IMG/VR virus record: IMGVR_UViG_2734482770_000005
Span: 1-24,191 of that record
Direction: 5' to 3' (one strand)
Length of the DNA: 24,191 nt
From: a virus
Lineage: Duplodnaviria > Heunggongvirae > Uroviricota > Caudoviricetes
A model generated the notes under the pieces. The model saw only the letters and a list, made by a program, of their open reading frames with translations. It did not search any database and had not been told where the DNA came from. Every line of letters begins with the position of its first letter. Position 1 is the stretch's first letter. A program made the translations under genes and the position numbers. Shown here piece after piece: positions 8,246 to 23,655 of this stretch.

Positions 8246-10087
8246 ATGTTAGAACTTAACGTCAGCCGCTTATCAAACGTTGTCACCTTCCAGGTTGATC
8301 GACCATCATTAGAGAAAGCAAAAGCAGAAGTAGAAAAACTTCGTAAACAAATGGCGGCGGTGAAAGATATAGAATTGCGTGTTAAGACACATAAACAATC
8401 AACTTCTAAAGCAAAAAAAGACGTAGACGATATTGCTAAAAAGCAAGCACAGGCAGATAAAGCCAATGCTAAAGCACAATTAGCCGCTCAACGTGTAGTT
8501 GCAAGAGAACAAAAAGCCCTGGCAGCACGCAAAGAGAAGGCAGACTTAAAACTGTTAGACGTTGGATCAAGCATTAGTGCATTGCACCGCCTTTCTGTAG
8601 CGGAACAATATAAAGCTATTGCACAGGCTAGAGAAATTGCCCTCCAATATGAAAGAGGAGCTATTAGTCTGGCACGTATGAATAGCCAAATGAAACGCCT
8701 ACAACAGCAACAACGTAAGATTAATGGCAATCGTAACGCTCACGCTAAAGCCTATGCACCTGTTAAGGGTAGCGGGAGTATTGGCGGCGGTGCTGCGGCT
8801 GTTATGCTGGGTGGCTTAGGCGCTGGCGCTACGTATATGGCTATGAGCAAAGCCTCTGAATTTGTTACTAACAGCTTTGCGAATGCTGAAACGCTGGGTG
8901 AATTGTATAGCCGTGCGAAGCTGGGCGGTGTAGACGTTAACCAGATGAACAATATTGAGCAATGGGCCTACAAAAACGGCGTTGATTCAATGATGGGGGA
9001 TCAAGGTAAACGTAAGTATCTCGATCAGATGAAAGATGTGCGTGAGCGTGCAACCAAAAGCTATGATGAGGCTGAATATGTAGTCGATAAAAAAACAGGC
9101 AAAGGTGAATGGAAGGGCGGCGATAGCGGCATCAATACTTTAATGAATGAAGGATTCTTAACTAAAAAGGATCTAAAAGACTTTGCTGATAATCCGGCTG
9201 GTCTGGTTAGTAAAGCAGTTCAGGGAATGGTGAAGAAAGGCTATTCAGATGCACAAATCGGTAGTCGTCTGGAAGATCTGGCTGATGATTTGATGCTCAC
9301 CTCTAAATACTGGACACGCTCCGCTAAAGAAGTGGAACAATCAGCACGAGAACAACGAGAATCAGGGCGCTGGGTAACACAGGCACAACAGGAAAGCGTT
9401 ATTAAATTCCGTGAACTGAATAATGCACTTAGTGGGCTTTCTGACTCACAAGGGATCGCCTTTGTTGATGGCTTTATGAAATCTCTTGATCCGAAAGTGA
9501 TTGAAGAGTTTAAAAAGAGCATGGTTGCAATGCTGCCAATGTTTACCAAATTAGGCGAGGCTATCGGCGGATTGGTTAACGCCGTAATGAAAACAATCAA
9601 CTGGCTGATGAAAAACGACGAGAAGACGGAAGCTATTCAGAAGAATTTAGGGGATGCACCGCCACTATCTAACGAAGGAATGAAGCAGAATCTTTCTAAT
9701 CTCACTCCTGATCAATATAAAGGCGCTGGCACCGGAACAACTAAGCCAGATAACAGCAATTCCCTGGTTAACACTATTAAAAGCTGGTTTATGCCAGAAG
9801 AAACGGTAGGTGGGGCGCAGGCTGTAAATCAATACAGTCTCGAAGGACAAAACATTGCAAATCTGAAACAGAGTGCAGCACAACAAGCTTTCAAGGCTCC
9901 TTCTTACACCTTTGCACCTGTTATTAACTTCAATCCAGAATTACAAGTAAATGCAGAAGTGCCGCTAACTATCGAATCAGACACCGGACGATTGAGCGAA
10001 TTTATCGACTTCAAATCAAAGGCATCCTCCGCTGAGTTTAGCAAGCTATTAACGCTGGGTGTTATGTCAGGCGGGTCAACCTATTAA
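8246..10087 (+). CDS. large coiled-coil protein with Gly/Ala-rich hydrophobic segment (613 aa); tape-measure-like or membrane-associated structural protein
   Basis: N-terminal 150 aa are Lys/Ala/Gln/Glu-rich heptad-like sequence (EKAKAEVEKLRKQMAAVK..., KAQLAAQRVVAREQKALAARKEKADLK); then GSGSIGGGAAAVMLGGLGAGATYMAM, a glycine-zipper-like hydrophobic stretch. Confidence 0.6.
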   Translation: MLELNVSRLSNVVTFQVDRPSLEKAKAEVEKLRKQMAAVKDIELRVKTHKQSTSKAKKDVDDIAKKQAQADKANAKAQLAAQRVVAREQKALAARKEKADLKLLDVGSSISALHRLSVAEQYKAIAQAREIALQYERGAISLARMNSQMKRLQQQQRKINGNRNAHAKAYAPVKGSGSIGGGAAAVMLGGLGAGATYMAMSKASEFVTNSFANAETLGELYSRAKLGGVDVNQMNNIEQWAYKNGVDSMMGDQGKRKYLDQMKDVRERATKSYDEAEYVVDKKTGKGEWKGGDSGINTLMNEGFLTKKDLKDFADNPAGLVSKAVQGMVKKGYSDAQIGSRLEDLADDLMLTSKYWTRSAKEVEQSAREQRESGRWVTQAQQESVIKFRELNNALSGLSDSQGIAFVDGFMKSLDPKVIEEFKKSMVAMLPMFTKLGEAIGGLVNAVMKTINWLMKNDEKTEAIQKNLGDAPPLSNEGMKQNLSNLTPDQYKGAGTGTTKPDNSNSLVNTIKSWFMPEETVGGAQAVNQYSLEGQNIANLKQSAAQQAFKAPSYTFAPVINFNPELQVNAEVPLTIESDTGRLSEFIDFKSKASSAEFSKLLTLGVMSGGSTY

Positions 10088-10134
10088 TCATCACTGTGGG
10101 GCTGTTTAGCCCCCTTAAATAAGGATTACAAATT

Positions 10135-10812
10135 ATGGCAATGGGTCCGTTAACCATTGGTCGCCCGACTGAGGCGAAAATCAACAGCACAAGCAACGAT
10201 AGCAACGGTAGAACAACCAAAGGGGGTAACGGCTTTGCGATCATTACCTCTAATCTCGGCAGTGGTGCAAATGCTGCTTACAATGACTACCAGGCATTAT
10301 CATTTGATAGCGTGGAATCGACGAAAGTTAGCAGAAATGCGGACGTTACAAGCTATGCCGTCGAATCAGGATCAGAAGTTAGTGATCATGTTCAAATACG
10401 GAATAACAAGTTCACATTACAAGGGCGTATCTCTGAAACCGTATTGAAGCTCAATCCTGATATGATTAAGAATGCTGGAATTAACGGCAATCGACGTATG
10501 CTTATGCTTGAATACCTAAATCAGTTGATGGACAGTCGCCAACCTTTCCTACTTGTCACTGAGTTAAAAAATTATGACAACGTTGTGTTAGTTGGCATGT
10601 CTTACGAAGAAGAAGCAAGCGAAAGCCTATTGTTTACTCTTGATTTTGAGCAAATCCGTCTTGTCTCTAAAGCAACTACAAGCGCAATTGCGGTAAAAAC
10701 AGCACCAAATAAATCTGTAGGAGGCCAGGTTAAAATGCAGGTAAATACAACAGAACAGAAAAATCAAAAAAGCCCAGGGCAAGACGTTGTAACGCCAGTA
10801 TTTAAACAATAG
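10135..10812 (+). CDS. hypothetical protein (225 aa)
   Basis: aagga ribosome-binding site; follows the 613 aa gene after a short hairpin-containing gap. Confidence 0.55.
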   Translation: MAMGPLTIGRPTEAKINSTSNDSNGRTTKGGNGFAIITSNLGSGANAAYNDYQALSFDSVESTKVSRNADVTSYAVESGSEVSDHVQIRNNKFTLQGRISETVLKLNPDMIKNAGINGNRRMLMLEYLNQLMDSRQPFLLVTELKNYDNVVLVGMSYEEEASESLLFTLDFEQIRLVSKATTSAIAVKTAPNKSVGGQVKMQVNTTEQKNQKSPGQDVVTPVFKQ

Positions 10813-10853
10813 CCTTAAACGCCTATGAAACGCTCTGTAACGAGATAATCATA

Positions 10854-10885
10854 AAAGAGGCATCAGTCTATATTGAAGCCTCTTT
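10854..10885. terminator. hairpin between convergent genes, candidate intrinsic terminator (best fit for the - strand integrase transcript)
   Basis: Perfect 8-bp stem aaagaggc / gcctcttt around a 16-nt loop; on the - strand the stem is followed by a U-rich run (uuuuaugauuau). Confidence 0.4.
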
Positions 10886-10892
10886 ATTACGT

Positions 10893-12257
10893 CTATAGCG
10901 TTGTTTTACGCCTTAAATTTGATTTTTTATTGATTGATAAGCCTTTCTCTATTTCAGGGTAGCGTAAAAGCTCAATATATTTTTTAAGCTCTATTGGAGA
11001 AGCTGCATTTTTGCTATATGTGCGGAATGTTTCTGTATTGCCGCGTGTATGGCCCAGGAGAAGGGCGATCCTGTCTTCTGGAATTTGATTTCGATCAAGA
11101 AGCTGTGCTACTCCGTGTCTCAGAGAATGAAACACTTTCCTTTCTGTTCCCTTTTCCCCTAAAGCCTTTCGTTTAGCTCTTGTAAATCGTTGTGTATGCC
11201 ACGTAGAGCGTTTACCGTCAGCACGTTCTGTAATGCTGGCGTGATAGAACAAAAAGCCATTGTGAGGCTTTTCACGCAGCGACAACACCAACGGAGTGAT
11301 AAGGTTATGCACAGGCACAACACGTGCCGCAGCTTTCGTCTTTCCCTGTGTGATTTCAAAACACAGCACACCTTCGATCTCTTTCACATCGTCTATTGTG
11401 AGACTTGCTATCTCATTGATCCGCATACCTGTATATAAACCGATAAGACACAAAGCCGTCATTTCTTTGTTTTCTGCTGAATTACCGGAAAATACTTGCA
11501 ACACCTGCAATAGCTCTTTGTTAGAAAATGCCTCGTAGCTCTCTCTACTTTGTGCCACATCAAGCCTATGCCCTCGCCAGGGGGAGAGCGCCCTTTCTGG
11601 CGCATCGTGGTAACGTGATGAAGCTAATTCCCATAGCTGGGCCATTGGACTGATATAATTTGCAATTGATTGTTGTGAAAGAGTTTTTTGCATGTGTTCA
11701 ATCCAGCCTGTAACAGTGGTGCGGCTTACATCTTGCAATGCAATATCAGGCTTTTTACGGTAGGAGAGAAACATCTCTACCGCTTTTCTTGCCTTAGCTA
11801 AAGTGGCTGGCTTCTTCTTCGTGCTGTTAATTGTCAGGTAGATTTCAAGAATTTTAAGCAATGACGGACACGAAGACGCTGTATCTTGCACTCTGGTAGC
11901 TGTTTTGGCGTATTTAGCCTTACTGCGTAACAGTTCCAGCGTGTTTTCTATTGTGCTGTTTACAGGGGCAACACTCTCCCGTAAGCAATGGTATTCATCT
12001 GCAATCTGATCACGCTTTCTACGTGCAACACGAAGATTACTTGTGTGTAGACTTCTGACAAACGTCCTTTTTCCTTCAAAAAAGGGCTGCATATACACAG
12101 GCAGCGTGATCCTTAAATAGTAGTTACCGTAAGAATCACAGATTAAGTATTGGTTAGGCTTGTATCTCATAAAATCTCCGGCTAAAGTGTCGGAGCGTTT
12201 GTAATGTGAAAATTGATTGTGACGCATAGAAAATGATGATTTTTCTATAAGATTCAA
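10893..12257 (-). CDS. tyrosine recombinase / phage-type integrase (454 aa)
   Basis: C-terminal catalytic region carries integrase signatures: GMRINEIASLTIDDV, HSLRHGVAQLL (H-x-x-R box) and LLGHTRGNTETFRTYSKN (tyrosine nucleophile region). Confidence 0.8.
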   Translation of the reverse strand: MNLIEKSSFSMRHNQFSHYKRSDTLAGDFMRYKPNQYLICDSYGNYYLRITLPVYMQPFFEGKRTFVRSLHTSNLRVARRKRDQIADEYHCLRESVAPVNSTIENTLELLRSKAKYAKTATRVQDTASSCPSLLKILEIYLTINSTKKKPATLAKARKAVEMFLSYRKKPDIALQDVSRTTVTGWIEHMQKTLSQQSIANYISPMAQLWELASSRYHDAPERALSPWRGHRLDVAQSRESYEAFSNKELLQVLQVFSGNSAENKEMTALCLIGLYTGMRINEIASLTIDDVKEIEGVLCFEITQGKTKAAARVVPVHNLITPLVLSLREKPHNGFLFYHASITERADGKRSTWHTQRFTRAKRKALGEKGTERKVFHSLRHGVAQLLDRNQIPEDRIALLLGHTRGNTETFRTYSKNAASPIELKKYIELLRYPEIEKGLSINKKSNLRRKTTL

Positions 12258-12314
12258 TCAATTAGTAATGGTCGTAGGTGATGGCATTAACACGAGATTA
12301 ATCGAGTGTTTTAC

Positions 12315-12332
12315 TCCTATTATCGGCACCAT
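12315..12332. repeat. candidate attL core of the P4-like element (direct repeat of 23639-23655)
   Basis: tcctattatcggcaccat here matches tcctattatcgcaccat at 23639-23655 with one 1-nt indel; both copies sit at the expected outer edges (int side and crr side). Confidence 0.4.
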
Positions 12333-12495: not shown

Positions 12496-13680
12496 ATGCC
12501 CCTAAATGATATGCAGATTCGCCGTGCTAAACCTGAAGCTAAAGCCTATACACTTGGGGATGGGCAAGGGTTGTCTTTACTTGTAGAGCCAAATGGAAGT
12601 AAAAGCTGGCGATTTCGTTATCGCTATGCCGGTAAACCCAAAATGATCTCGCTTGGTGTTTACCCAACGATCACTCTTGCTGATGCTCGTTCCCGTCGTG
12701 ATGAAGCTCGAAAACTTGTGGCAGAAGGAAAGAACCCTAGTGAGGTTCGAAAAGAGCAAAAGCTGGCTCTGCAAACAGAGTCAGAGAACGCCTTCGAAAA
12801 GATAGCCAGAGAGTGGCATCAACAGAAGTCTACCAAATGGTCGGCGGGATATGCATCAGACATCATGGAAGCGTTTAAGAACGACATTTTTCCTTATGTG
12901 GGAACAAGGCCAGTGGGAGAGATTAAACCGCTAGAACTGCTTAATGTGCTGCGTAAAATCGAAAAGCGCGGTGCATTAGAAAAAATGCGCAAAGTTCGGC
13001 AGCGATGCTCAGAAGTTTTCCGCTATGCCATTGCTACTGGAAGGGCTGAGTTTAACCCTGCTGCGGATCTTTCAAGCGCCCTCAATGTACACCAATCAAA
13101 TCATTTCCCGTTCTTAAAGGCTAATGAGATACCTGATTTTCTTCGCGCCTTAAACGGATATACCGGAAGTCGGCTTGTCCTGATTGCCACGAAATTGCTC
13201 ATGATTACAGGTGTTAGAACCATCGAATTACGTGCGGCATTATGGTCAGAATTTGATTTAGATAACGCTATTTGGGAAATTCCTGCTGAAAGGATGAAAA
13301 TGCGCAGATCACACCTTGTGCCTTTGTCGACTCAAGCGTTAGATTTGCTAAATGAACTCAAGATGATGACAGGGAAGTATAGTTATGTTTTTCCGGGGCG
13401 GAACGATCCGAACAAGCCTATGAGTGAGGCGAGTATTAACCAAGTTATCAAGCGTATTGGTTATGGTGGAAAACTTACTGGTCATGGATTTCGACATTCC
13501 TTATCTACTATCCTCCACGAAAAAGGATATGATTCGGCTTGGATAGAAATACAGCTTGCTCATATAGATAAGAATAATATTAGAGGTACGTATAATCATG
13601 CTCAATATATTGATAAACGCCGTGATATGATGCAGTGGTATTCAGATTATATTTTTATTAAGGAGAATGTGAATGAGTAA
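12496..13680 (+). CDS. int: P4-type tyrosine integrase (394 aa)
   Basis: N-terminal arm-binding region typical of P4/CP4-57 integrases (MQIRRAKPEAKAYTLGDGQGLSLLVEPNGSKSWRFRYRYAGK); C-terminal catalytic motifs HGFRHSLSTIL and LAHIDKNNIRGTYNHAQYIDKRRDMMQWY. Confidence 0.9.
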   Translation: MPLNDMQIRRAKPEAKAYTLGDGQGLSLLVEPNGSKSWRFRYRYAGKPKMISLGVYPTITLADARSRRDEARKLVAEGKNPSEVRKEQKLALQTESENAFEKIAREWHQQKSTKWSAGYASDIMEAFKNDIFPYVGTRPVGEIKPLELLNVLRKIEKRGALEKMRKVRQRCSEVFRYAIATGRAEFNPAADLSSALNVHQSNHFPFLKANEIPDFLRALNGYTGSRLVLIATKLLMITGVRTIELRAALWSEFDLDNAIWEIPAERMKMRRSHLVPLSTQALDLLNELKMMTGKYSYVFPGRNDPNKPMSEASINQVIKRIGYGGKLTGHGFRHSLSTILHEKGYDSAWIEIQLAHIDKNNIRGTYNHAQYIDKRRDMMQWYSDYIFIKENVNE

Positions 13681-15301
13681 CGAGTTTGATAGTAGTAAAC
13701 TAGAAAATTGCTTTGAGCTTGCATTGGAAAATATTATAAAGCACGGCGATACAGATATTTTCCCTTACCCATTTGAAAGTCGGTTATTTGAAGATGATAA
13801 GGAGAAAGTAAAAACTGCATTAATGCAAACATTTAATGACTTTGAAAATAAAAGGATCGAGATTCCACCAAACATAATTAATAGCTTTTCAAGTATTGGT
13901 TATTATGGTTACAGGTGGGCGACCCAAATTGATCCATTCTGGAATGCTTTTTTTCTTGGGTTAGTTTTAAAAATCGCTGATGATATTGAAAGGAATAGAT
14001 CTACTAAAACGCAGGTTTATTCATATCGCTTTAAACCAAACCTTGCTGATGGTTCTCTTTTTGATAAAGAGATCTCTTGGAGAAAATATCAAGAAGACAG
14101 TATCTCTGAATGTTCTAACGATGAAATAAAGTATGTACTTACATGCGATATAGCAGATTTCTATCCGCGTATTTATCACCACCGTTTAGAAAATGCGTTA
14201 GATAGAGTCGACCCCAATAAAGATTACTCTGGGAAAATCAAGAAATTACTACAGACATTTAGTGAAACAAAATCATATGGAGTACCAGTTGGATGTCCTG
14301 CCTCTAGAATATTAGCAGAACTAGCTCTAGATTCTATTGATAAATTATTGTCTATGAATAGAATCAACTATAAGCGTTATGTCGACGACTTTGTTATTTT
14401 TTGTAACTCTAGAGAGGATGCTCATAAGATTTTAACTTTGCTTAGTAAAAAACTGATGGAAAATGAAGGGCTAACTTTACAGAAACAAAAAACCAATATT
14501 GTTACTAAAGAAGAGTTCCTTTCAGTAACTAAAGCTAAGTTGCATGGTAATGATGAAGATGAAGAATCTCCTATGAAGGCTAAATTTATGAGTCTTCCTA
14601 TAAGATTCGATCCTTACTCAGCAAATGCGATAGAGGAATATGAAGAGATAAAGGAATCTTTAAAAGATTTTGACTTGTTAGCTATGCTGAGTAGTGAGTT
14701 ACAAAAATCAAAAATTAACCAATCTTTTAGCAAGCATTTGATAAAGGCATTCTCAGCAACATCAGATGAAATAATAAGTAGTGCTTTCAAAGTAATGTTT
14801 AATAACTTGCATGAGTTATATCCAATATTTACAACTATAATTCAAGTAGCTAACTCCAACTGGCAAAAATTAAGCACAGAAACCAAAGATATTATTCTTG
14901 ATAAAATAACTGCACTAATTAAACAAGATTCATATATTTTGAGTACTGAGCTCAACTTAGCCTATGTAGCCCGAATGCTCTCAAAAGAAAATTCAGAAAA
15001 ATCCACCCTAATCCTTAGTGAAATATACAATAACAATCCAGAAAGCATCTTAGTCAAGAACATAGTTACACAGTCAATGGCAAAAATTAATTCTTACGCA
15101 TGGCTTTCTGATATCAAAAAAAATTTCTCTGCAATGCATCCGTTGCAGAGAAGACTATTGATCGTTTCCAGTTACATCTTAGGTGATGAAGGACGGCACT
15201 GGAGAGAGCATAATAAGAAAACATTCAACTTTGTAGAGGTGATTTACAGGGATTGGGCAAGTAAAAGGCATACCGCAAGAAATCTTGAGGATGCGCTATG
15301 A
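13673..15301 (+). CDS. reverse transcriptase (542 aa) with helical C-terminal extension; non-retron, non-intron defence-type RT suspected
   Basis: RT motif A CDIADFYPRIYHH, motif B SYGVPVGCPASRILAELALDSID, motif C with catalytic YVDD (YKRYVDDFVIF). Start overlaps the int stop by 8 nt with aagga ribosome-binding site. GC is visibly lower than in neighbouring P4 genes. Confidence 0.85.
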   Translation: MSNEFDSSKLENCFELALENIIKHGDTDIFPYPFESRLFEDDKEKVKTALMQTFNDFENKRIEIPPNIINSFSSIGYYGYRWATQIDPFWNAFFLGLVLKIADDIERNRSTKTQVYSYRFKPNLADGSLFDKEISWRKYQEDSISECSNDEIKYVLTCDIADFYPRIYHHRLENALDRVDPNKDYSGKIKKLLQTFSETKSYGVPVGCPASRILAELALDSIDKLLSMNRINYKRYVDDFVIFCNSREDAHKILTLLSKKLMENEGLTLQKQKTNIVTKEEFLSVTKAKLHGNDEDEESPMKAKFMSLPIRFDPYSANAIEEYEEIKESLKDFDLLAMLSSELQKSKINQSFSKHLIKAFSATSDEIISSAFKVMFNNLHELYPIFTTIIQVANSNWQKLSTETKDIILDKITALIKQDSYILSTELNLAYVARMLSKENSEKSTLILSEIYNNNPESILVKNIVTQSMAKINSYAWLSDIKKNFSAMHPLQRRLLIVSSYILGDEGRHWREHNKKTFNFVEVIYRDWASKRHTARNLEDAL

Positions 15302-16038
15302 TATCTGAATTAACGTTTTCTCGAAAATTCACTTCATTTTGGAATCAATTGCTTCCAAATGCTAATAATTTCATACGCATCATTAACGGCAGTCTCATCG
15401 AGGACGTTTATCCTCCTCTAGATGACTGCGCTAATAGGTCAAATAACGTCTTTGTTAATGAGTGCGCATTTAATTTATATAGGGCAATACAGAATGATTC
15501 GTTAGACAGAAATATTCTTTCAGCACATGATATCTTCCATAATGCTGATTTTCAGGTTGTTTTTGAAAAAACAAAAGAATATCTACAGCGGTTCGCTTAC
15601 GGTTCTAACTTCAAGCTACCCTTAAGCATGGTTGAGTACAATGCCATAAGGGAAATAGCAAGAAACATTTTGTCTCGATATGGAATGGAAAACCAAATTG
15701 AAGTGTCTCCACAATTCGATGGATGCGGAGTAATAAATAATTCATATGGCGATATTTATTATTCAAATGTTCTTGTGGAAATAAAATCAGGAGATAGGAA
15801 GTTTAGTGTTTACGATCTTAGACAGGTGCTAATATATTTCACTTTAAACTTTTACTCAAAAAACAAAAGAAACATCAAGAGATTTGAGCTTTTCAATCCT
15901 CGGATGGGTATCACTTATAGTGATACCATTGTCAACCTTTGCAAAGAGTTGGCGTTTATTCAACCTGAAGAATTGTACTTTGAGATAATGAATTCTATTA
16001 CAGAAGAAAATTTCATAGTAACTGAAATGCAACGCTAG
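15298..16038 (+). CDS. RT-associated accessory protein (246 aa), putative effector; function unknown
   Basis: ATGA start/stop overlap with the RT gene (translational coupling). Soluble, no obvious transmembrane segment. Weak motifs: R-x5-H (DRNILSAHD) and D-x11-E-x-K (GDIYYSNVLVEIK). Confidence 0.6.
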   Translation: MISELTFSRKFTSFWNQLLPNANNFIRIINGSLIEDVYPPLDDCANRSNNVFVNECAFNLYRAIQNDSLDRNILSAHDIFHNADFQVVFEKTKEYLQRFAYGSNFKLPLSMVEYNAIREIARNILSRYGMENQIEVSPQFDGCGVINNSYGDIYYSNVLVEIKSGDRKFSVYDLRQVLIYFTLNFYSKNKRNIKRFELFNPRMGITYSDTIVNLCKELAFIQPEELYFEIMNSITEENFIVTEMQR

Positions 16039-16047
16039 ATATCATGC

Positions 16048-16075
16048 AGACCGCTACAATCCATTGTAGTGGTCT
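16048..16075 (+). terminator. stem-loop just after the accessory gene stop, possible terminator or RNA structure
   Basis: agaccgctacaat cc attgtagtggtct gives a 13-bp stem with one G-U pair, 10 nt after the TAG stop, followed by atttct. Confidence 0.35.
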
Positions 16076-16157
16076 ATTTCTAAACGTTCCTTCTGACGAA
16101 TAAAGCCAAAATACCAAATAGAATTAAAGAAAATTATAATATCAGCCTTAGCGCGCA

Positions 16158-16176
16158 ATGCTCCCCCCGCCACGCC
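16158..16176. other. cos: candidate cos site (P2/P4-type 19-nt cohesive end sequence)
   Basis: Minus-strand reading of 16158-16176 is GGCGTGGCGGGGGGAGCAT, which matches the P2/P4 cohesive end as I recall it (GGCGAGGCGGGGAAAGCAC) at 15 of 19 positions. It sits between the cargo and psu, where cos lies in circular P4. Confidence 0.45.
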
Positions 16177-16278
16177 CGCCCGCTTTGCGGGGCGGTTTTA
16201 ATGCAGTTGCACTGACACGCTCAGACCGCGCCGGGAATGGCGCGGTCTGCAGAAAATGAGGCAGGGAAACGCATGCAA

Positions 16279-16310
16279 AGCCATGCACCTTATCGATGCA
16301 TGGCTTTTTT
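16279..16310 (+). terminator. Rho-independent terminator (+ strand orientation) before the psu 3' end
   Basis: Perfect 9-bp stem agccatgca / tgcatggct with 9-nt loop, followed by a run of five T (16306-16310). Confidence 0.55.
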
Positions 16311-16340
16311 CAGTAAAAACGGGCGGATTTTCGGGGAATT

Positions 16341-16913
16341 TTACACAGACTGACGTGATGCCAGTTGCGCACTTTTACGCGAAAAAATCATGTTCTGCGC
16401 AGGGGTGAATTTTTCACGGCTGTCATCCACCGAAGCCGCGTCAGGCCTGAATCCGATGGTCGTTAAAATGTCGCTATCCTGTGCGGAATAATTAATTTTT
16501 TCCCCCTTCGCAAGCCAGGACAGAAGGGCTTCACGCAGGGCATCTGTGGCACGCTGTATGGCACAGTTTCGGGCAATGGCCGTCAGCTCACTGTAGCCCA
16601 TCAGCTCCGGTGCCAGTGCGGCCGCCAGTACTGTGCCGTGCTGCTGCATAAAATCATTCAGCCGGTCGCGGATGCTGATGTGCTGAACGGCTTCATGCGA
16701 ACGAATATAACGACCGGCGGCCTGATTCACCTGCCATTTTCTGACTTCGATAATATTGCGTAATTCGTCCAGGCGGCTGACGTTTCTGCCTTCTCCTGAC
16801 AGAAGCCGCAGATATTCCTGTTCGGCCGCTGCCAGCTCATTTTTGCGTTGCAGCCATGCTGCTTTGTTATTCTGACAGGTGTCAAAGGCCTGCTGTAAGG
16901 CTGTGCTTTCCAT
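16341..16913 (-). CDS. psu: P4 Psu (polarity suppression / capsid decoration protein), 190 aa
   Basis: 190 aa, the P4 Psu length; the sequence MESTALQQAFDTCQNNKAAWLQRKNELAAAEQEY... matches P4 Psu as I recall it; position immediately 5' of delta and sid on the same strand. Confidence 0.8.
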   Translation of the reverse strand: MESTALQQAFDTCQNNKAAWLQRKNELAAAEQEYLRLLSGEGRNVSRLDELRNIIEVRKWQVNQAAGRYIRSHEAVQHISIRDRLNDFMQQHGTVLAAALAPELMGYSELTAIARNCAIQRATDALREALLSWLAKGEKINYSAQDSDILTTIGFRPDAASVDDSREKFTPAQNMIFSRKSAQLASRQSV

Positions 16914-16986: not shown

Positions 16987-17487
16987 TCATTCCAGACGCA
17001 GCGAATATGATTGTGTTTTTAAGCGTACTGGCGGCAGTTCCTGTTTTTCATGCAGGCTTTCTGCCAGTTCGTCCGGCGTGACCGGGCGGACAATGAAGCG
17101 GTTGATGGTCTGAAGCGTTTTAAACACCAGACCACAGCCCGGATCCGTGCACACATAAAAACGCTCGGTGACTTCCTGAGACAGACGCCGCGATGTTCTT
17201 GACAGTGCAAGGCCTTTACATCTCCGACAACAATATCCGGTAACAAGCATTCTTTTCGGGCGTTTCATACTGCCGGAGGCTGACGTCAGTGAATCGCGGT
17301 ATCTCTGTTTGCCTGAAATGTATTCCATTCCTGAATCTTTACAGTCAGAGAAAAAGCTTTCACTCGCTTCAAATGTCGCAGAGCAATAAATATTCCGGCA
17401 CTGTGCAATCATTATCTTGGTGCCATCGTCCATGAAATGTGCGCGACGGGTGTGAGCAACATGTCCACACGACGGGCAGTAAATCAT
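16987..17487 (-). CDS. delta: P4 Delta late-gene activator (Ogr/Delta zinc-finger family), 166 aa
   Basis: Two Cys-rich Ogr-like modules (CPSCGHVAH...CRNIYC and CCRRCKG...CTDPGC); 166 aa as in P4 Delta; overlaps the sid stop by 4 nt. Confidence 0.85.
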   Translation of the reverse strand: MIYCPSCGHVAHTRRAHFMDDGTKIMIAQCRNIYCSATFEASESFFSDCKDSGMEYISGKQRYRDSLTSASGSMKRPKRMLVTGYCCRRCKGLALSRTSRRLSQEVTERFYVCTDPGCGLVFKTLQTINRFIVRPVTPDELAESLHEKQELPPVRLKTQSYSLRLE

Positions 17488-18218
17488 GACAGCAGTCCTC
17501 TGGCCTTAAGCTCTGCTCCCTGCTGGTCTATTTTGTCCTGCCACACCTTGCGCTGTGCCGGTGTGCCTGCCACCTCATAATCCATGTGCGGGAGTGTTGC
17601 CGCTGACAGTCCGGTCAGCCGGAGAACCGGCTCGCCGGTGAGGCTGATTTGCATCTGTTTTATTTTCTGTTCCAGCGATGATTTCACCTGCTGCATGACA
17701 GCTTTATCGGGTGCGACGTAGCCCTGATGGCCGGTGGTGTTGGCGAGCGGATTTTCCTGTACCAGGATGCTCAGATGCATTGCCCGGACAAGCGCCTCAC
17801 AGGTTTCATTCAGGGCGTGTTCCAGCTCATTCTCTGCATACAGACTCAGAAGGTGATGATGTGCCTTCCGGTAGGCGGTGGCCGTGCTGTCACACGCCCC
17901 TTTCAGGCGTTCACGTTCAAAATTCAGCACCACGGCCAGATTGTCATATTCCTGTACCAGCTCCCGGCGTGCCACGCGCTCAATGTGGCGCTGTTTCAGC
18001 TCGTCGCTCAGGACACCACCGGCTGCACGAAAGGCCGTGCGCCAGTCGTCAGCGTCGTTTCCGTCGGCCTGCGCCAGCGCATTTTTTTCCTGCTCTGCCC
18101 GTTCAATGGCCGTGACGGTCTCATCCATCAGGCGGGCGTTCTCAAGATGGGCGGCTCTGGCCTTTTCCAGTTGTGCCAGCGCGGGTTGCAGATATTCAGG
18201 GATGGTGTTGTCAGACAT
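17484..18218 (-). CDS. sid: P4 Sid (capsid size determination external scaffold), 244 aa from MSDNTIPEY
   Basis: The track ORF 17484-18284 extends upstream of the likely start; the ATG at 18218 is preceded by aggagccggaaa and gives 244 aa (the P4 Sid length as I recall it). The protein is largely helical and coiled-coil-like. Confidence 0.8.
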   Translation of the reverse strand: MSDNTIPEYLQPALAQLEKARAAHLENARLMDETVTAIERAEQEKNALAQADGNDADDWRTAFRAAGGVLSDELKQRHIERVARRELVQEYDNLAVVLNFERERLKGACDSTATAYRKAHHHLLSLYAENELEHALNETCEALVRAMHLSILVQENPLANTTGHQGYVAPDKAVMQQVKSSLEQKIKQMQISLTGEPVLRLTGLSAATLPHMDYEVAGTPAQRKVWQDKIDQQGAELKARGLLS

Positions 18219-18290
18219 TTTCCGGCTCCTCGTCACTTCAGGTTGAGAAAATTGTGACGTACACCGGACAACAACACGACGCATTGCAGA

Positions 18291-19036: not shown

Positions 19037-19130
19037 TGATGCCCGCTCTGCAAAAAGTCCCTTTTTCTGGCTTGCCTTTTTCCGGCATTTGCGGATATAG
19101 TTTTTCCGCTGCCGCAAAATCGGCAGCCGG

Positions 19131-19422
19131 GCGTGAGAACCCGGGCAATCTAACGGCGACATATGACGCGCCATGCGTCTTTTTTTGTGTCGCAATCAAC
19201 GCCACAGAGCGCCAGATTATGGTGTGGTGTGTGGTCAGTCGTGCAGATGGCACTCCGTGCATCCTGCCCGCGTCCGCTCATTATGCCGCAGAGTCAATGG
19301 TAGCTCAGGCGGGGCAGCCTCCGGGCTGGCCGGTATCCGTTAGAGCCGGTATTCTCACCCCCGTCTGGGCTATCGCCATCGAGCGTGAGAACTCCGGCGA
19401 TAGCGTAACCTGCTATCTAACG
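19131..19422 (+). ncRNA. putative P4-type immunity-RNA region (seqA / seqB / seqC-like arrangement)
   Basis: Direct repeats gcgtgagaacccgggcaatctaacgg (19131-19156) and gcgtgagaactccggcga...ctatctaacgg (19383-19422) flank ccgttagagccgg (19337-19349), which is complementary to the ccggc...tctaacgg part of both repeats. No well-supported protein ORF covers the interval. Confidence 0.3.
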
Positions 19423-20830: not shown

Positions 20831-23164
20831 ATGAAAATGAACGTAACCGCCACCGTCAGCCATGCGCTCGGCCACTGGCCGCGTATTCTCCCGGCGCTGG
20901 GGATTCCGGTGCTGAAAAACCGTCATCAGCCCTGTCCGGTCTGTGGCGGGAGTGACCGCTTCCGTTTTGATGACAGGGAGGGGCGCGGCACCTGGTACTG
21001 CAATCAGTGTGGTGCCGGTGACGGCCTGAAACTGGTTGAAAAGGTGTTTGGTGTTTCCCCGTCCGATGCGGCCGCAAAGGTGGCTGCCGTGACCGGCAGC
21101 CTGCCACAGGCTGACCCGGCAGTGACGGCCGCCGCCGGTGCTGAAACAGACGCTGCCCGGAAGAACGCCGCCGCACTGGCACAAACCCTGATGGCAAAAA
21201 CCCGTCCCGGAACCGGTAACGCCTACCTGACCCGCAAGGGCTTTCCCGGCCGGGAATGCCGGATGCTGACCGGCACACACAGAGCCGGTGGCGTGAGCTG
21301 GCGTGCCGGTGACCTTGTGGTGCCACTGTATGACGACAGCGGCGAACTGGTTAACCTTCAGTTAATCAGTGCTGACGGCCGTAAGCGCACCCTGAAAGGC
21401 GGACAGGTCAGGGGCACCTGTCACACCCTTGAAGGACAGAATCAGGCCGGAAAACGTCTGTGGATAGCGGAGGGATACGCGACCGCACTTACCGTGCATC
21501 ACCTGACCGGTGAAACGGTGATGGTGGCGCTTTCTTCCGTGAACCTCCTTTCTCTGGCCAGCCTTGCCCGGCAGAAGCATCCGGCCTGTCAGATTGTCCT
21601 TGCCGCAGACCGTGACCTCAGCGGTGACGGCCAGAAAAAAGCCGCCGCAGCCGCAGATGCGTGTGAGGGCGTTGTTGCCCTGCCGCCGGTCTTCGGTGAC
21701 TGGAATGATGCCTTCACGCAGTACGGCGGGGAGGCCACCCGTAAGGCCATTTACGATGCCATCCGGCCACCGGCTGAAAGCCCGTTCGACACCATGAGCG
21801 AAGCAGAGTTTTCCGCCATGAGTACCAGCGAAAAGGCCATGCGTATCTATGAGCATTACGGCGAGGCGCTCGCGGTCGATGCCAACGGCCAGCTTCTGTC
21901 CCGTTATGAAAATGGTGTCTGGAAGGTGCTGCCGCCACAGGACTTTGCCCGGGATGTGGCCGGGCTGTTTCAGCGTCTGCGCGCGCCGTTCTCCTCCGGG
22001 AAGGTGGCCTCCGTGGTGGACACCCTGAAGCTGATTATTCCGCAGCAGGAAGCCCCCTCCCGCCGCCTGATTGGCTTTCGTAACGGCGTGCTCGACACGC
22101 AGAACGGTACGTTCCACCCACACAGTCCGTCACACTGGATGCGCACCCTGTGCGATGTGGATTTCACCCCGCCGGTGGACGGTGAAACGCTGGAAACCCA
22201 CGCCCCCGCGTTCTGGCGCTGGCTTGACCGTGCCGCCGGTGGCCGTGCGGAAAAACGCGACGTGATTCTGGCCGCACTGTTTATGGTGCTGGCAAACCGC
22301 TACGACTGGCAGCTCTTTCTGGAGGTGACCGGTCCCGGCGGCAGCGGCAAAAGTATCATGGCCGAAATAGCCACCCTGCTGGCCGGGGAGGATAACGCCA
22401 CGTCGGCCACCATTGAGACGCTGGAATCCCCGCGTGAACGTGCCGCGTTAACTGGCTTCTCACTGATACGCCTGCCGGACCAGGAAAAATGGAGCGGCGA
22501 CGGTGCCGGACTCAAGGCCATCACCGGCGGCGATGCGGTGTCCGTGGACCCGAAATACCGGGATGCGTACTCCACGCATATCCCGGCGGTGATTCTGGCC
22601 GTGAACAATAACCCGATGCGCTTCACCGACCGCAGCGGCGGCGTGTCACGCCGGCGGGTGATTATTCACTTCCCGGAACAGATAGCCCCGCAGGAGCGCG
22701 ACCCGCAGCTTAAGGACAAAATCACCCGCGAGCTGGCGGTCATCGTGCGTCACCTGATGCAGAAGTTCAGCGACCCGATGCTCGCCCGGTCACTGCTTCA
22801 GTCCCAGCAGAACTCAGACGAGGCGCTGAACATCAAACGGGATGCCGACCCGACGTTTGATTTTATCGGCTATCTGGAAACCCTGCCGCAGACCAGCGGC
22901 ATGTATATGGGGAACGCCAGTATCATCCCGCGTAATTACCGTAAATACCTCTATCACGCCTATCTGGCCTACATGGAGGCAAACGGCTACCGGAACGTAC
23001 TCAGTCTGAAAATGTTCGGGCTGGGGCTACCGGTGATGCTGAAGGAATACGGACTGAATTACGAGAAGCGCCATACCAAACAGGGGATACAGACCAACCT
23101 GACGCTGAAAGAGGAAAGCTACGGCGACTGGCTGCCAAAATGTGACGACCCTGCAACAACCTGA
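20831..23164 (+). CDS. alpha: P4 alpha-type primase-helicase replication protein (777 aa)
   Basis: N-terminal zinc-binding CPVCGG...YCNQCG; central primase region; Walker A P-loop TGPGGSGKS; 777 aa as in P4 alpha; ggaga ribosome-binding site upstream. Confidence 0.9.
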   Translation: MKMNVTATVSHALGHWPRILPALGIPVLKNRHQPCPVCGGSDRFRFDDREGRGTWYCNQCGAGDGLKLVEKVFGVSPSDAAAKVAAVTGSLPQADPAVTAAAGAETDAARKNAAALAQTLMAKTRPGTGNAYLTRKGFPGRECRMLTGTHRAGGVSWRAGDLVVPLYDDSGELVNLQLISADGRKRTLKGGQVRGTCHTLEGQNQAGKRLWIAEGYATALTVHHLTGETVMVALSSVNLLSLASLARQKHPACQIVLAADRDLSGDGQKKAAAAADACEGVVALPPVFGDWNDAFTQYGGEATRKAIYDAIRPPAESPFDTMSEAEFSAMSTSEKAMRIYEHYGEALAVDANGQLLSRYENGVWKVLPPQDFARDVAGLFQRLRAPFSSGKVASVVDTLKLIIPQQEAPSRRLIGFRNGVLDTQNGTFHPHSPSHWMRTLCDVDFTPPVDGETLETHAPAFWRWLDRAAGGRAEKRDVILAALFMVLANRYDWQLFLEVTGPGGSGKSIMAEIATLLAGEDNATSATIETLESPRERAALTGFSLIRLPDQEKWSGDGAGLKAITGGDAVSVDPKYRDAYSTHIPAVILAVNNNPMRFTDRSGGVSRRRVIIHFPEQIAPQERDPQLKDKITRELAVIVRHLMQKFSDPMLARSLLQSQQNSDEALNIKRDADPTFDFIGYLETLPQTSGMYMGNASIIPRNYRKYLYHAYLAYMEANGYRNVLSLKMFGLGLPVMLKEYGLNYEKRHTKQGIQTNLTLKEESYGDWLPKCDDPATT

Positions 23165-23218: not shown

Positions 23219-23525
23219 CCGAAGGTGAACAATCCACTGTTCACCCTTCACCGTATATTCACCCGTTATCACACTGAAATTAAAAGAGAAAAACGAAAGG
23301 TGAACAGTGTGAACAATCAAATCAAAAAAAACTTTTTTCTTCCTGAGTGATTTCAGTGCGGAGGATTAATCACCGGTATGAGTCACACCGGCAGAATGCC
23401 GGAGGTGAAGAATCGAATGTTCACCCTTCACCCATTATTCACCACCTATCACACTGAAAGAAAAGGAGAAAATCAAAGGGTGAACAGTGTGAACAGTTCT
23501 TTCGAAAAAAAACTTTTTTCTTATT
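23219..23525. repeat. crr: crr-like replication element: two about 125 bp direct repeats, each with TGTTCACC/GGTGAACA octamers
   Basis: Repeat 1 about 23219-23343 and repeat 2 about 23399-23524 (offset about 180 bp) share aggtgaa..atgttcacccttcacc..attcacc..tatcacactgaaa..ggtgaacagtgtgaaca..aaaaaaacttttttctt. Two about 120 bp direct repeats with iterons is the described P4 crr organisation. Confidence 0.65.
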
Positions 23526-23638
23526 TTTAATTGTGCGAAAAACAAGCGATGCGCGCAGTGTGTATAGATATGTGTATAGTTATATTTTTTGAATATAATA
23601 ATCTATTATAAATCAATGTCTTAACTTTTAATATTCAT

Positions 23639-23655
23639 TCCTATTATCGCACCAT
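23639..23655. repeat. candidate attR core of the P4-like element (direct repeat of 12315-12332)
   Basis: tcctattatcgcaccat; see the attL entry. Lies between crr and the chromosomal LysR gene. Confidence 0.4.

Follow-up and report, generated by a model that had tools for sequence, protein, structure and literature searches.

The stretch between the last cargo gene and psu (16048–16310) in this viral DNA poses the question of what it is for: whether it is a packaging site, a pair of operon ends, or part of an RNA gene accompanying the reverse transcriptase (RT) encoded next to it. The earlier note, made from the sequence of the whole 24,191-nt stretch of DNA analyzed here (the window), had treated it as a single structured, GC-rich spacer with a cos-like 19-mer and three strong hairpins, and had raised the option that the hairpins belong to a small RNA of the RT system. 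Our analysis separates the stretch into two parts. Positions 16151–16310 are, with high probability, the cos site of a P4-like satellite prophage of ~11.3 kb, and positions 16039–16150 the 3′ untranslated tail of the DRT8 cargo that this prophage carries. A P4-type cos beside defense-gene cargo is already known biology; in this sense, the site is real but ordinary.

A P4-like satellite prophage with a DRT8 cargo

A homology search of the window places a P4-type integrase gene (int) at 12496–13680 on the plus strand. It is followed on the same strand by the DRT8 RT gene (UG7-type reverse transcriptase, 13673–15301; PADLOC Drt8, E = 4.9e-166) and by the gene for its PD-(D/E)XK nuclease partner, which is the last gene of the cargo (15298–16038; PADLOC RTasPDDEXK, E = 5.5e-69). 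On the other side of cos, the minus strand encodes psu (16341–16913; Pfam Psu, E = 4e-88), which comes last in the late operon sid-delta-psu, together with delta (16987–17487) and the sid ORF (17484–18284). The P4 immunity RNAs C4, isrK, and c4-a1b1 lie at 19095–19380; all three are intact and exceed the Rfam gathering scores (74.5, 72.1, and 49.3 bits, respectively), and the Rfam families for CI/C4 RNA and isrK (RF01695, RF01394, and RF03163), which match at 19095–19380, have no match in 16048–16310. With the alpha primase-helicase gene at 20831–23164, the gene order is that of a satellite: int, cargo, cos, psu, delta, sid, C4/isrK RNAs, and alpha. A candidate att pair, consisting of a 16-nt imperfect direct repeat with 2 mismatches (12310–12325 and 23634–23649), delimits an element of ~11.3 kb, which is the size of P4. 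No tRNA gene was found in the window.

P4 satellites carry variable defense cargo between int and cos, right beside cos (Rousset et al. 2022, PMC9122126), and the DRT8 genes occupy this hotspot here. The RT start codon (13673) overlaps the int stop codon (13680), and the same tight junction is found at another DRT8 locus (L088). Therefore, the left boundary of the hotspot lies at the int stop, and the DRT8 system may be co-transcribed with int. Since the cargo sits between int and cos inside the ~11.3-kb element, it would be packaged with the satellite, which agrees with what had been proposed from the sequence earlier.

Several further observations concern the surroundings of the element. Two 120-nt direct repeats, 180 nt apart, at 23219–23518 are the counterpart of the P4 crr replication region. 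In Escherichia coli ECCRA-119, a truncated LysR-family gene beside paoD directly borders the element. Directly upstream of the satellite in the window (8246–12257), the minus strand encodes a second integrase (10893–12257), and an ORF of 613 aa is also present there. The same satellite adjoins a different neighbor in ECCRA-119 (L212, 1–4888), with a DUF4062 protein and a further protein that has an RT domain. These differing neighbors suggest that a variable island lies in tandem with the satellite.

The two ends of P4 DNA meet at 16176/16177

In a distant BLAST search against phage records, 16177–16420 was 98.8% identical over 244 nt to P4 positions 11624–11381, and the alignment ended exactly where the linear P4 record ends (NC_001609, junction 11624/1). 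P4 position 11624 thus corresponds to window position 16177, and P4 position 1 corresponds to 16176. From there on, P4 1–26 (GGCGAGGCGGGGAAAGCACCGCGCGC) is identical at 21 of 26 positions to the minus strand of 16176–16151 (GGCGTGGCGGGGGGAGCATTGCGCGC). Since the two ends of the P4 record abut at 16176/16177, both ends of mature P4 DNA meet there. The earlier note had taken the minus-strand 19-mer at 16158–16176 for a cos-like site and had named alignment with P4 cos as one way to check it. The coordinates were correct, P4 cos aligned at this very place, and the 19-mer is borne out as the cohesive end of a P4-like satellite.

As we delimit it, the cos site (16151–16310) has a left arm of 7 nt, a cohesive end of 19 nt, and a right arm of about 135 nt. 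The 5′-protruding cohesive end, GGCGTGGCGGGGGGAGCAT, read on the minus strand from 16176 to 16158, has the 19-nt G+C-rich form GGCG(A/T)GGCGGGGnnAGCA(C/T), and, taken with its 7-nt extension, it fits the family pattern GGCGWGGCGGGGNNAGCAYYGCGCGC, which matches nowhere else in the window and for which chance would give 0 matches. The 55-bp cos core (16151–16205, minus strand), which combines the left arm (7 nt, TGCGCGC in minus-strand reading), the 19 nt, and 29 nt of right arm, fits a consensus that is near-invariant in 67 non-redundant helper phages among the matches listed and in satellites. In addition, the site has the collinear place expected of a P4 cos, between psu and the non-essential region on the int side. 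The psu stop lies 164 nt from the nick here and 164–179 nt from it in almost all satellites, and the 19-mer begins 167 nt past the end of the psu coding match (74 IMG/VR satellite loci fetched via Psu). Based on collinearity with P4, the nicks would fall at 16177/16176 on the minus strand and at 16158/16157 on the plus strand.

These results agree with the published picture, in which P2 and P4 share the core cos signal and the P4 hotspot directly adjoins cos (PMC9122126); P4-like satellites have also been described by Moura de Sousa and Rocha 2021 (PMC8628076). PMC5694545 and PMC3931495 cite a 55-bp P2-family core (Ziermann and Calendar 1990), and the latter reports this core as needed for packaging.

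Inside the core, a terminator scan picked out a nick-adjacent inverted repeat, CCGCCC-N8-GGGCGG, at 16176–16195 (CCGCCCGCTTTGCGGGGCGG followed by TTTT). We rejected it as a terminator: its fold is no better than that of shuffled sequences (z = −0.5), and its conservation in helpers, where the sequence is kept as CCGaCCCAT.AAGCGGGC, is explained by the cos core.

The hotspot ends at 16150/16151

The 74 satellite loci can be aligned through TGCGCGC and diverge completely 7 nt beyond the 19-mer. A similar break appears among 5,426 complete E. coli genomes, 1,081 of which match the psu-side part and only 96 of which also match the cargo side, with most alignments starting at ~16126–16152. Therefore, the sequence from 16151 onward is satellite backbone and 16039–16150 is cargo, which sets the hotspot boundary, at base resolution, at 16150/16151.

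Immediately on the cargo side of this boundary lies an AT-rich spacer that travels with the cargo (16076–16150). It is 22–30% GC and folds no better than shuffled sequences (z = +1.65). The sequence at about 16150–16275 is 62–74% GC. The description of the whole stretch as a GC-rich spacer consequently holds for the latter part and fails for the former.

We also observed a (G/T)TGAT-like motif 8–14 nt past TGCGCGC in many satellites with unrelated cargo (for example, L010, L015, L019, L021, L027, L028, and L082), with its equivalent in the window at 16130–16150. The motif resembles the left arm of helpers (GGTGGTGCTGAT), and it may have been left over from a once longer left arm or reflect variable recombination breakpoints.

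The whole right arm is homologous to that of helper phages

Using the core pattern, we collected at least 120 cos-containing IMG/VR stretches. Among the matches listed, 76 with the portal gene Q beside cos count as helpers and 14 with psu as satellites; 30 are unclassified. Conservation in helpers was read in a fixed register from the nick over the 67 non-redundant helpers among the matches listed. In this set, positions −36 to −1 form a near-invariant block, and the motif gcCAg..ctgg...Gg.T is moderately conserved at −65 to −48. TGCAT boxes recur in these listed helpers at −29 (64/67), −101/−100 (50/67), −111/−110 (51/67), and −124 to −120 (48/67). The window has its boxes, on the minus strand, at exactly matching positions: three within 16273–16301, at −101, −111, and −124 from the nick, and a fourth at 16201–16205, at −29.

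To compare the outer arm separately from the core, we used a profile HMM built from helpers only, covering −140 to −40 with the core excluded. This profile matches 16314–16218 end to end (E = 2.1e-11) and has no other match in the 24-kb window. Therefore, the hairpins at 16224–16247 and 16279–16310 belong by homology to the right arm of the P2-family cos. As such, the three hairpins do not make up one structured spacer, as had been thought; two belong to a helper-type cos right arm and the third belongs to the cargo operon. The right end of phage 186 can likewise be aligned across the whole psu-cos spacer. Their position and periodicity suggest that the TGCAT boxes may be bound by the terminase small subunit, and the outer elements of the right arm may in part be described already (Ziermann and Calendar 1990).

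The surroundings of cos are arranged differently in the two kinds of element. Among the matches listed, gene Q lies on the left-arm side in 76/76 helpers, at a distance of 160–190 nt in 60/75. The accessory genes of the helpers that we inspected (old in P2, cdt in KC618326) lie on the right-arm side, which holds psu in satellites, and the satellite hotspot lies on the left-arm side; the variable regions thus flank cos oppositely in satellites and helpers. This opposite geometry might bear on the lack of cargo exchange reported between P2 and P4 (PMC13586616).

The inverted repeat at 16222–16249 fits a DNA motif better than an RNA helix

The second hairpin, which had been noted as a perfect stem at 16224–16247 without a T-tract, was confirmed, and its pairing reaches 16222–16249 (CAGACCGCGCC-N6-GGCGCGGTCTG, centered 59.5 nt from the nick). 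It is stable on both strands (11–12 pairs; −25.8 kcal/mol on plus and −24.4 kcal/mol on minus; z about −5), and neither strand provides the U-tract of a terminator. The repeat is the satellite form of the helper motif GCGCCAG-N3-CTGGCGCGG, and it has the same center as the helper consensus. Its 3′ arm, GGCGCGGcCTGAG, is at least 90% conserved; its 5′ arm is variable, with frequent breaks in the outer pairs. Across 31 distinct satellite versions, covariation was not above that of shuffles (74.5% of cells paired; 41 of 500 shuffles reached the observed score), and we therefore rejected a conserved RNA helix at 16224–16247. Because a near-invariant 3′ arm is combined with a variable 5′ arm and with no covariation, the repeat appears closer to a motif conserved as DNA sequence than to an RNA structure, and it is likely to be a protein-recognition element of cos.

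A few satellites (L019, L057, L072, and L079) rebuild the repeat in other sequence or in another register, as in ACGCCGCG-CCCGA-CGCGGCGT (L072) and CAGGCC-N11-GGCCTG (L019). These cases hint at some selection for dyad symmetry, although they are anecdotal beside the negative covariation test.

Predicted terminators of the psu and cargo transcripts

The hairpin at 16279–16310, found where the earlier note had placed it, pairs two inverted TGCAT boxes and lies between an A-run and a T-run. It has 11–13 pairs and fold energies of −16.0 kcal/mol on the plus strand and −21.5 kcal/mol on the minus strand (z = −3.9 and −5.9, respectively). TTTTTT follows it on the plus strand, and on the minus strand, which is the psu strand, the tail after 16279 is UUUG. 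The same hairpin is predicted in 20/20 distinct versions from 67 unique satellite arms. In helpers, a perfect stem of at least 6 bp occurs at this place in 19/67 among the matches listed, and the flanking A-run is absent. The terminator scan gave no other candidate between the psu stop and cos, and in phage 186 an annotated terminator, t95b, lies upstream of the homologous region. We propose that 16279–16310 is probably a two-way intrinsic terminator that satellites have strengthened from the TGCAT-box region. It would probably end the psu late transcript and prevent transcription from the cargo and cos from running on into antisense psu.

The remaining hairpin (16048–16075, plus strand) was also present as reported, 9 nt past the nuclease stop, and it resembles an intrinsic terminator of the int-DRT8 operon. 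Its 12-pair stem, which includes one G-U pair, has a fold energy of −17.3 kcal/mol (z = −6.3), with 0/200 shuffles as good, and is followed by the tail ATTTCT (AUUUCU in the transcript); the pattern scan made no call on it. The simple terminator scan called neither this hairpin nor 16279–16310, probably because A/T pairs join the stem and shorten the T-tail that is counted.

The hairpin at 16048–16075 is linked to the cargo. At a Citrobacter locus whose nuclease is 93% identical (L086), it is kept with two one-sided, pair-preserving changes and has a TTTTT tail (UUUUUCU). Two more distant DRT8 loci (L087 and L088; 75% and 69% protein identity, respectively) have unrelated stable post-stop hairpins at the same place. 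The search for DRT8 outside the P4 context gave three loci, two of which were again P4-like, and the test of co-conservation thus rests on few sequences. We interpret the hairpin as the putative terminator of the cargo operon itself.

Alternative explanations

The strong local folds could also be read as RNA genes or RNA signals. A small noncoding RNA (ncRNA) working with the DRT8 RT, encoded by the hairpins or by 16040–16320 as a whole, would have precedents in DRT2, DRT3, and DRT9, which depend on ncRNAs according to PMC13213688 and PMC12596737, and the 2026 overview (PMC13213688) gives the DRT8 mechanism as still undescribed. However, 16151–16310 is present in about 1,000 E. coli satellites with unrelated cargo, and in P4, and therefore cannot be DRT8-specific. 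The sole cargo-linked structure is the post-stop hairpin, which is swapped for unrelated hairpins at 75% and 69% identity; the remaining 75 nt of the cargo tail are unstructured, and no intergenic space exists upstream, where the RT start overlaps the int stop. A structured region beside the RT gene and conserved with it across contexts, as would be expected of a DRT ncRNA, was not found here, as the downstream sequences of L087 and L088 are unrelated. Rfam searches, at gathering thresholds and, on 15900–16450, at E up to 10, gave no known RNA family here and chance-level matches only (best E = 2.4, for a snoRNA and for the terminator portion of Thr_leader), and a sigma-70 promoter scan found no promoter-like site in 15838–16463 on either strand, which makes an independently transcribed small RNA unlikely. 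The small-RNA option of the earlier note thus gained nothing from Rfam, promoter prediction, co-conservation with DRT8, or covariation in the 16224–16247 helix, and we consider it extremely improbable. It is also unlikely that the roles of 16224–16247 and 16279–16310 are confined to RNA, as a terminator and a 3′-end stabilizer of the sid-delta-psu late mRNA with no share in packaging, and that cos is the 55-bp core alone. This reading would account for the location of both hairpins in the psu 3′ untranslated region and for the far greater strength and uniformity of the 16279–16310 hairpin in satellites compared with helpers; since 186 has a separate t95b, satellites may have needed to build a terminator here, and the literature found (PMC5694545 and PMC3931495) describes only the 55-bp core. 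It does not account for the significant homology of the segment in helpers, which have no psu there, or for TGCAT boxes at fixed distances from the nick in 48–51 of 67 diverse helpers among the matches listed. Moreover, at 16224–16247, what is conserved is probably sequence and not structure, as judged from the missing covariation, the near-invariant 3′ arm, and the variable 5′ arm.

Another alternative concerns the cohesive end. The 19-mer is identical to that of P4/P2 at 15/19 positions, differing at positions 5, 13, 14, and 19 (the 7-nt left arm has one further substitution relative to P4), and to the 186 type at 17/19, differing at positions 13 and 14. The exact 19-mer occurs once in 2.9 million IMG/VR contigs, on a contig of the same element, and in no helper. 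Of the E. coli matches, which reach the cargo side in 96 genomes, the four listed at 100% identity occupy comparable places in the chromosome. Such rarity would be expected if cos were a decayed relic, in which the AA-to-GG change disabled cleavage and left the element as an immobilized, vertically inherited defense island. We consider this very unlikely, given that all differences fall on positions (5, 13, 14, and 19) that vary naturally among intact phages and satellites, with AA, AT, TA, and AG all occurring at positions 13–14. GG is a single transition away from AG, which is common in satellites (12/74) and is carried by close DRT8 relatives in Citrobacter. Furthermore, the satellite genes and the remaining elements of cos are intact, with a right arm that has kept its near-identity to P4 (98.8%). 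We thus favor a working cos, in which the GG variant of the cohesive end is probably functional.

The distribution of these variants shows a pattern of its own. Among the matches listed, G at position 14 was found in satellites only, in 12/74 loci of the Psu set (10 + 2, plus the GG here) and in 8/14 of the pattern set; it was found in 0/76 helper and 0/30 unclassified loci among the matches listed, which use AA, AT, or TA. AT at positions 13–14 was found only in helpers and unclassified loci, in limited samples and among the matches listed.

Discussion

Our reading of the locus implies the following course of events. After activation by a helper of the P2/186 type, the excised circular satellite DNA would be recognized by the helper terminase via the right arm, that is, via the TGCAT boxes at −124/−111/−101/−29, the GGCGCGG-containing repeat centered at −59.5, and the 36-nt near-invariant block by the nick, with the assignment of proteins to individual boxes being provisional. 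The terminase would then nick the two strands 19 nt apart, at 16176/16177 and at 16157/16158. In the resulting linear genome, the left cohesive end would be followed immediately by the DRT8 cargo and the right one by psu. The left arm would be retained as 7 nt only, with the interchangeable defense hotspot beyond. At the level of transcription, the hairpin at 16048–16075 would terminate the int-RT-nuclease transcript, and the TGCAT-box region at 16279–16310, strengthened in satellites to a two-way terminator, would end psu and insulate it from cargo read-through.

A broader proposal is more doubtful, and we offer it tentatively. The functional cos might span ~155 bp, with the phased TGCAT boxes and GGCGCGG as a shared terminase-recognition arm, two boxes of which satellites have reshaped into a bidirectional terminator; the AG and GG cohesive ends may, in turn, limit end-joining or recombination between satellite and helper.

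As a discovery, the site carries little weight, since P4 cos and its place beside the defense hotspot are textbook knowledge and have recently been reviewed. What is added is small: a boundary at the base level, an extended right-arm homology with its TGCAT boxes, a probable dual-use terminator, a rare cohesive end, and the lack of a DRT8 accessory RNA. For annotation, it follows that conspicuous hairpins beside psu are parts of cos and not new RNA genes, and that the DRT8 cargo brings its own putative terminator alone. The similarity of the right arm between helpers and satellites, together with the satellite-only cohesive-end variants, could guide the construction of minimal cos cassettes and studies of helper specificity.

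Compared with P2-like helpers, especially those of the 186 type, the site shares the 55-bp core, the TGCAT boxes at −124/−111/−101/−29, and the GCGCC...GGCGCGG repeat centered at −59.5; canonical P2 has the boxes but lacks the inverted repeat at −59.5. On the left arm, helpers keep about 14 more conserved bases, whereas satellites have the hotspot there. The predicted terminator at 16279–16310 shares with bidirectional intrinsic terminators between convergent operons a GC-containing stem bordered by an A-run and, opposite, a T-run, and, like them, it is set between convergent units, here DRT8 and psu; it differs from them in that its stem is made of conserved cos boxes and its minus-strand U-tract is short. 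P4 cos itself (NC_001609) has the same position, 164 nt past psu, with the same TGCAT-box hairpin, the same inverted repeat, and a 19-nt end that follows the family pattern, and its hotspot likewise begins 7 nt beyond. Relative to P4, the inverted repeat in the window is 3 pairs longer, and the cargo is DRT8 in place of gop-beta-cII. The arrangement is that of the P4 defense hotspot of Rousset et al., from which it shows no essential difference; here, its boundary is placed at the base level, and its cargo is DRT8.
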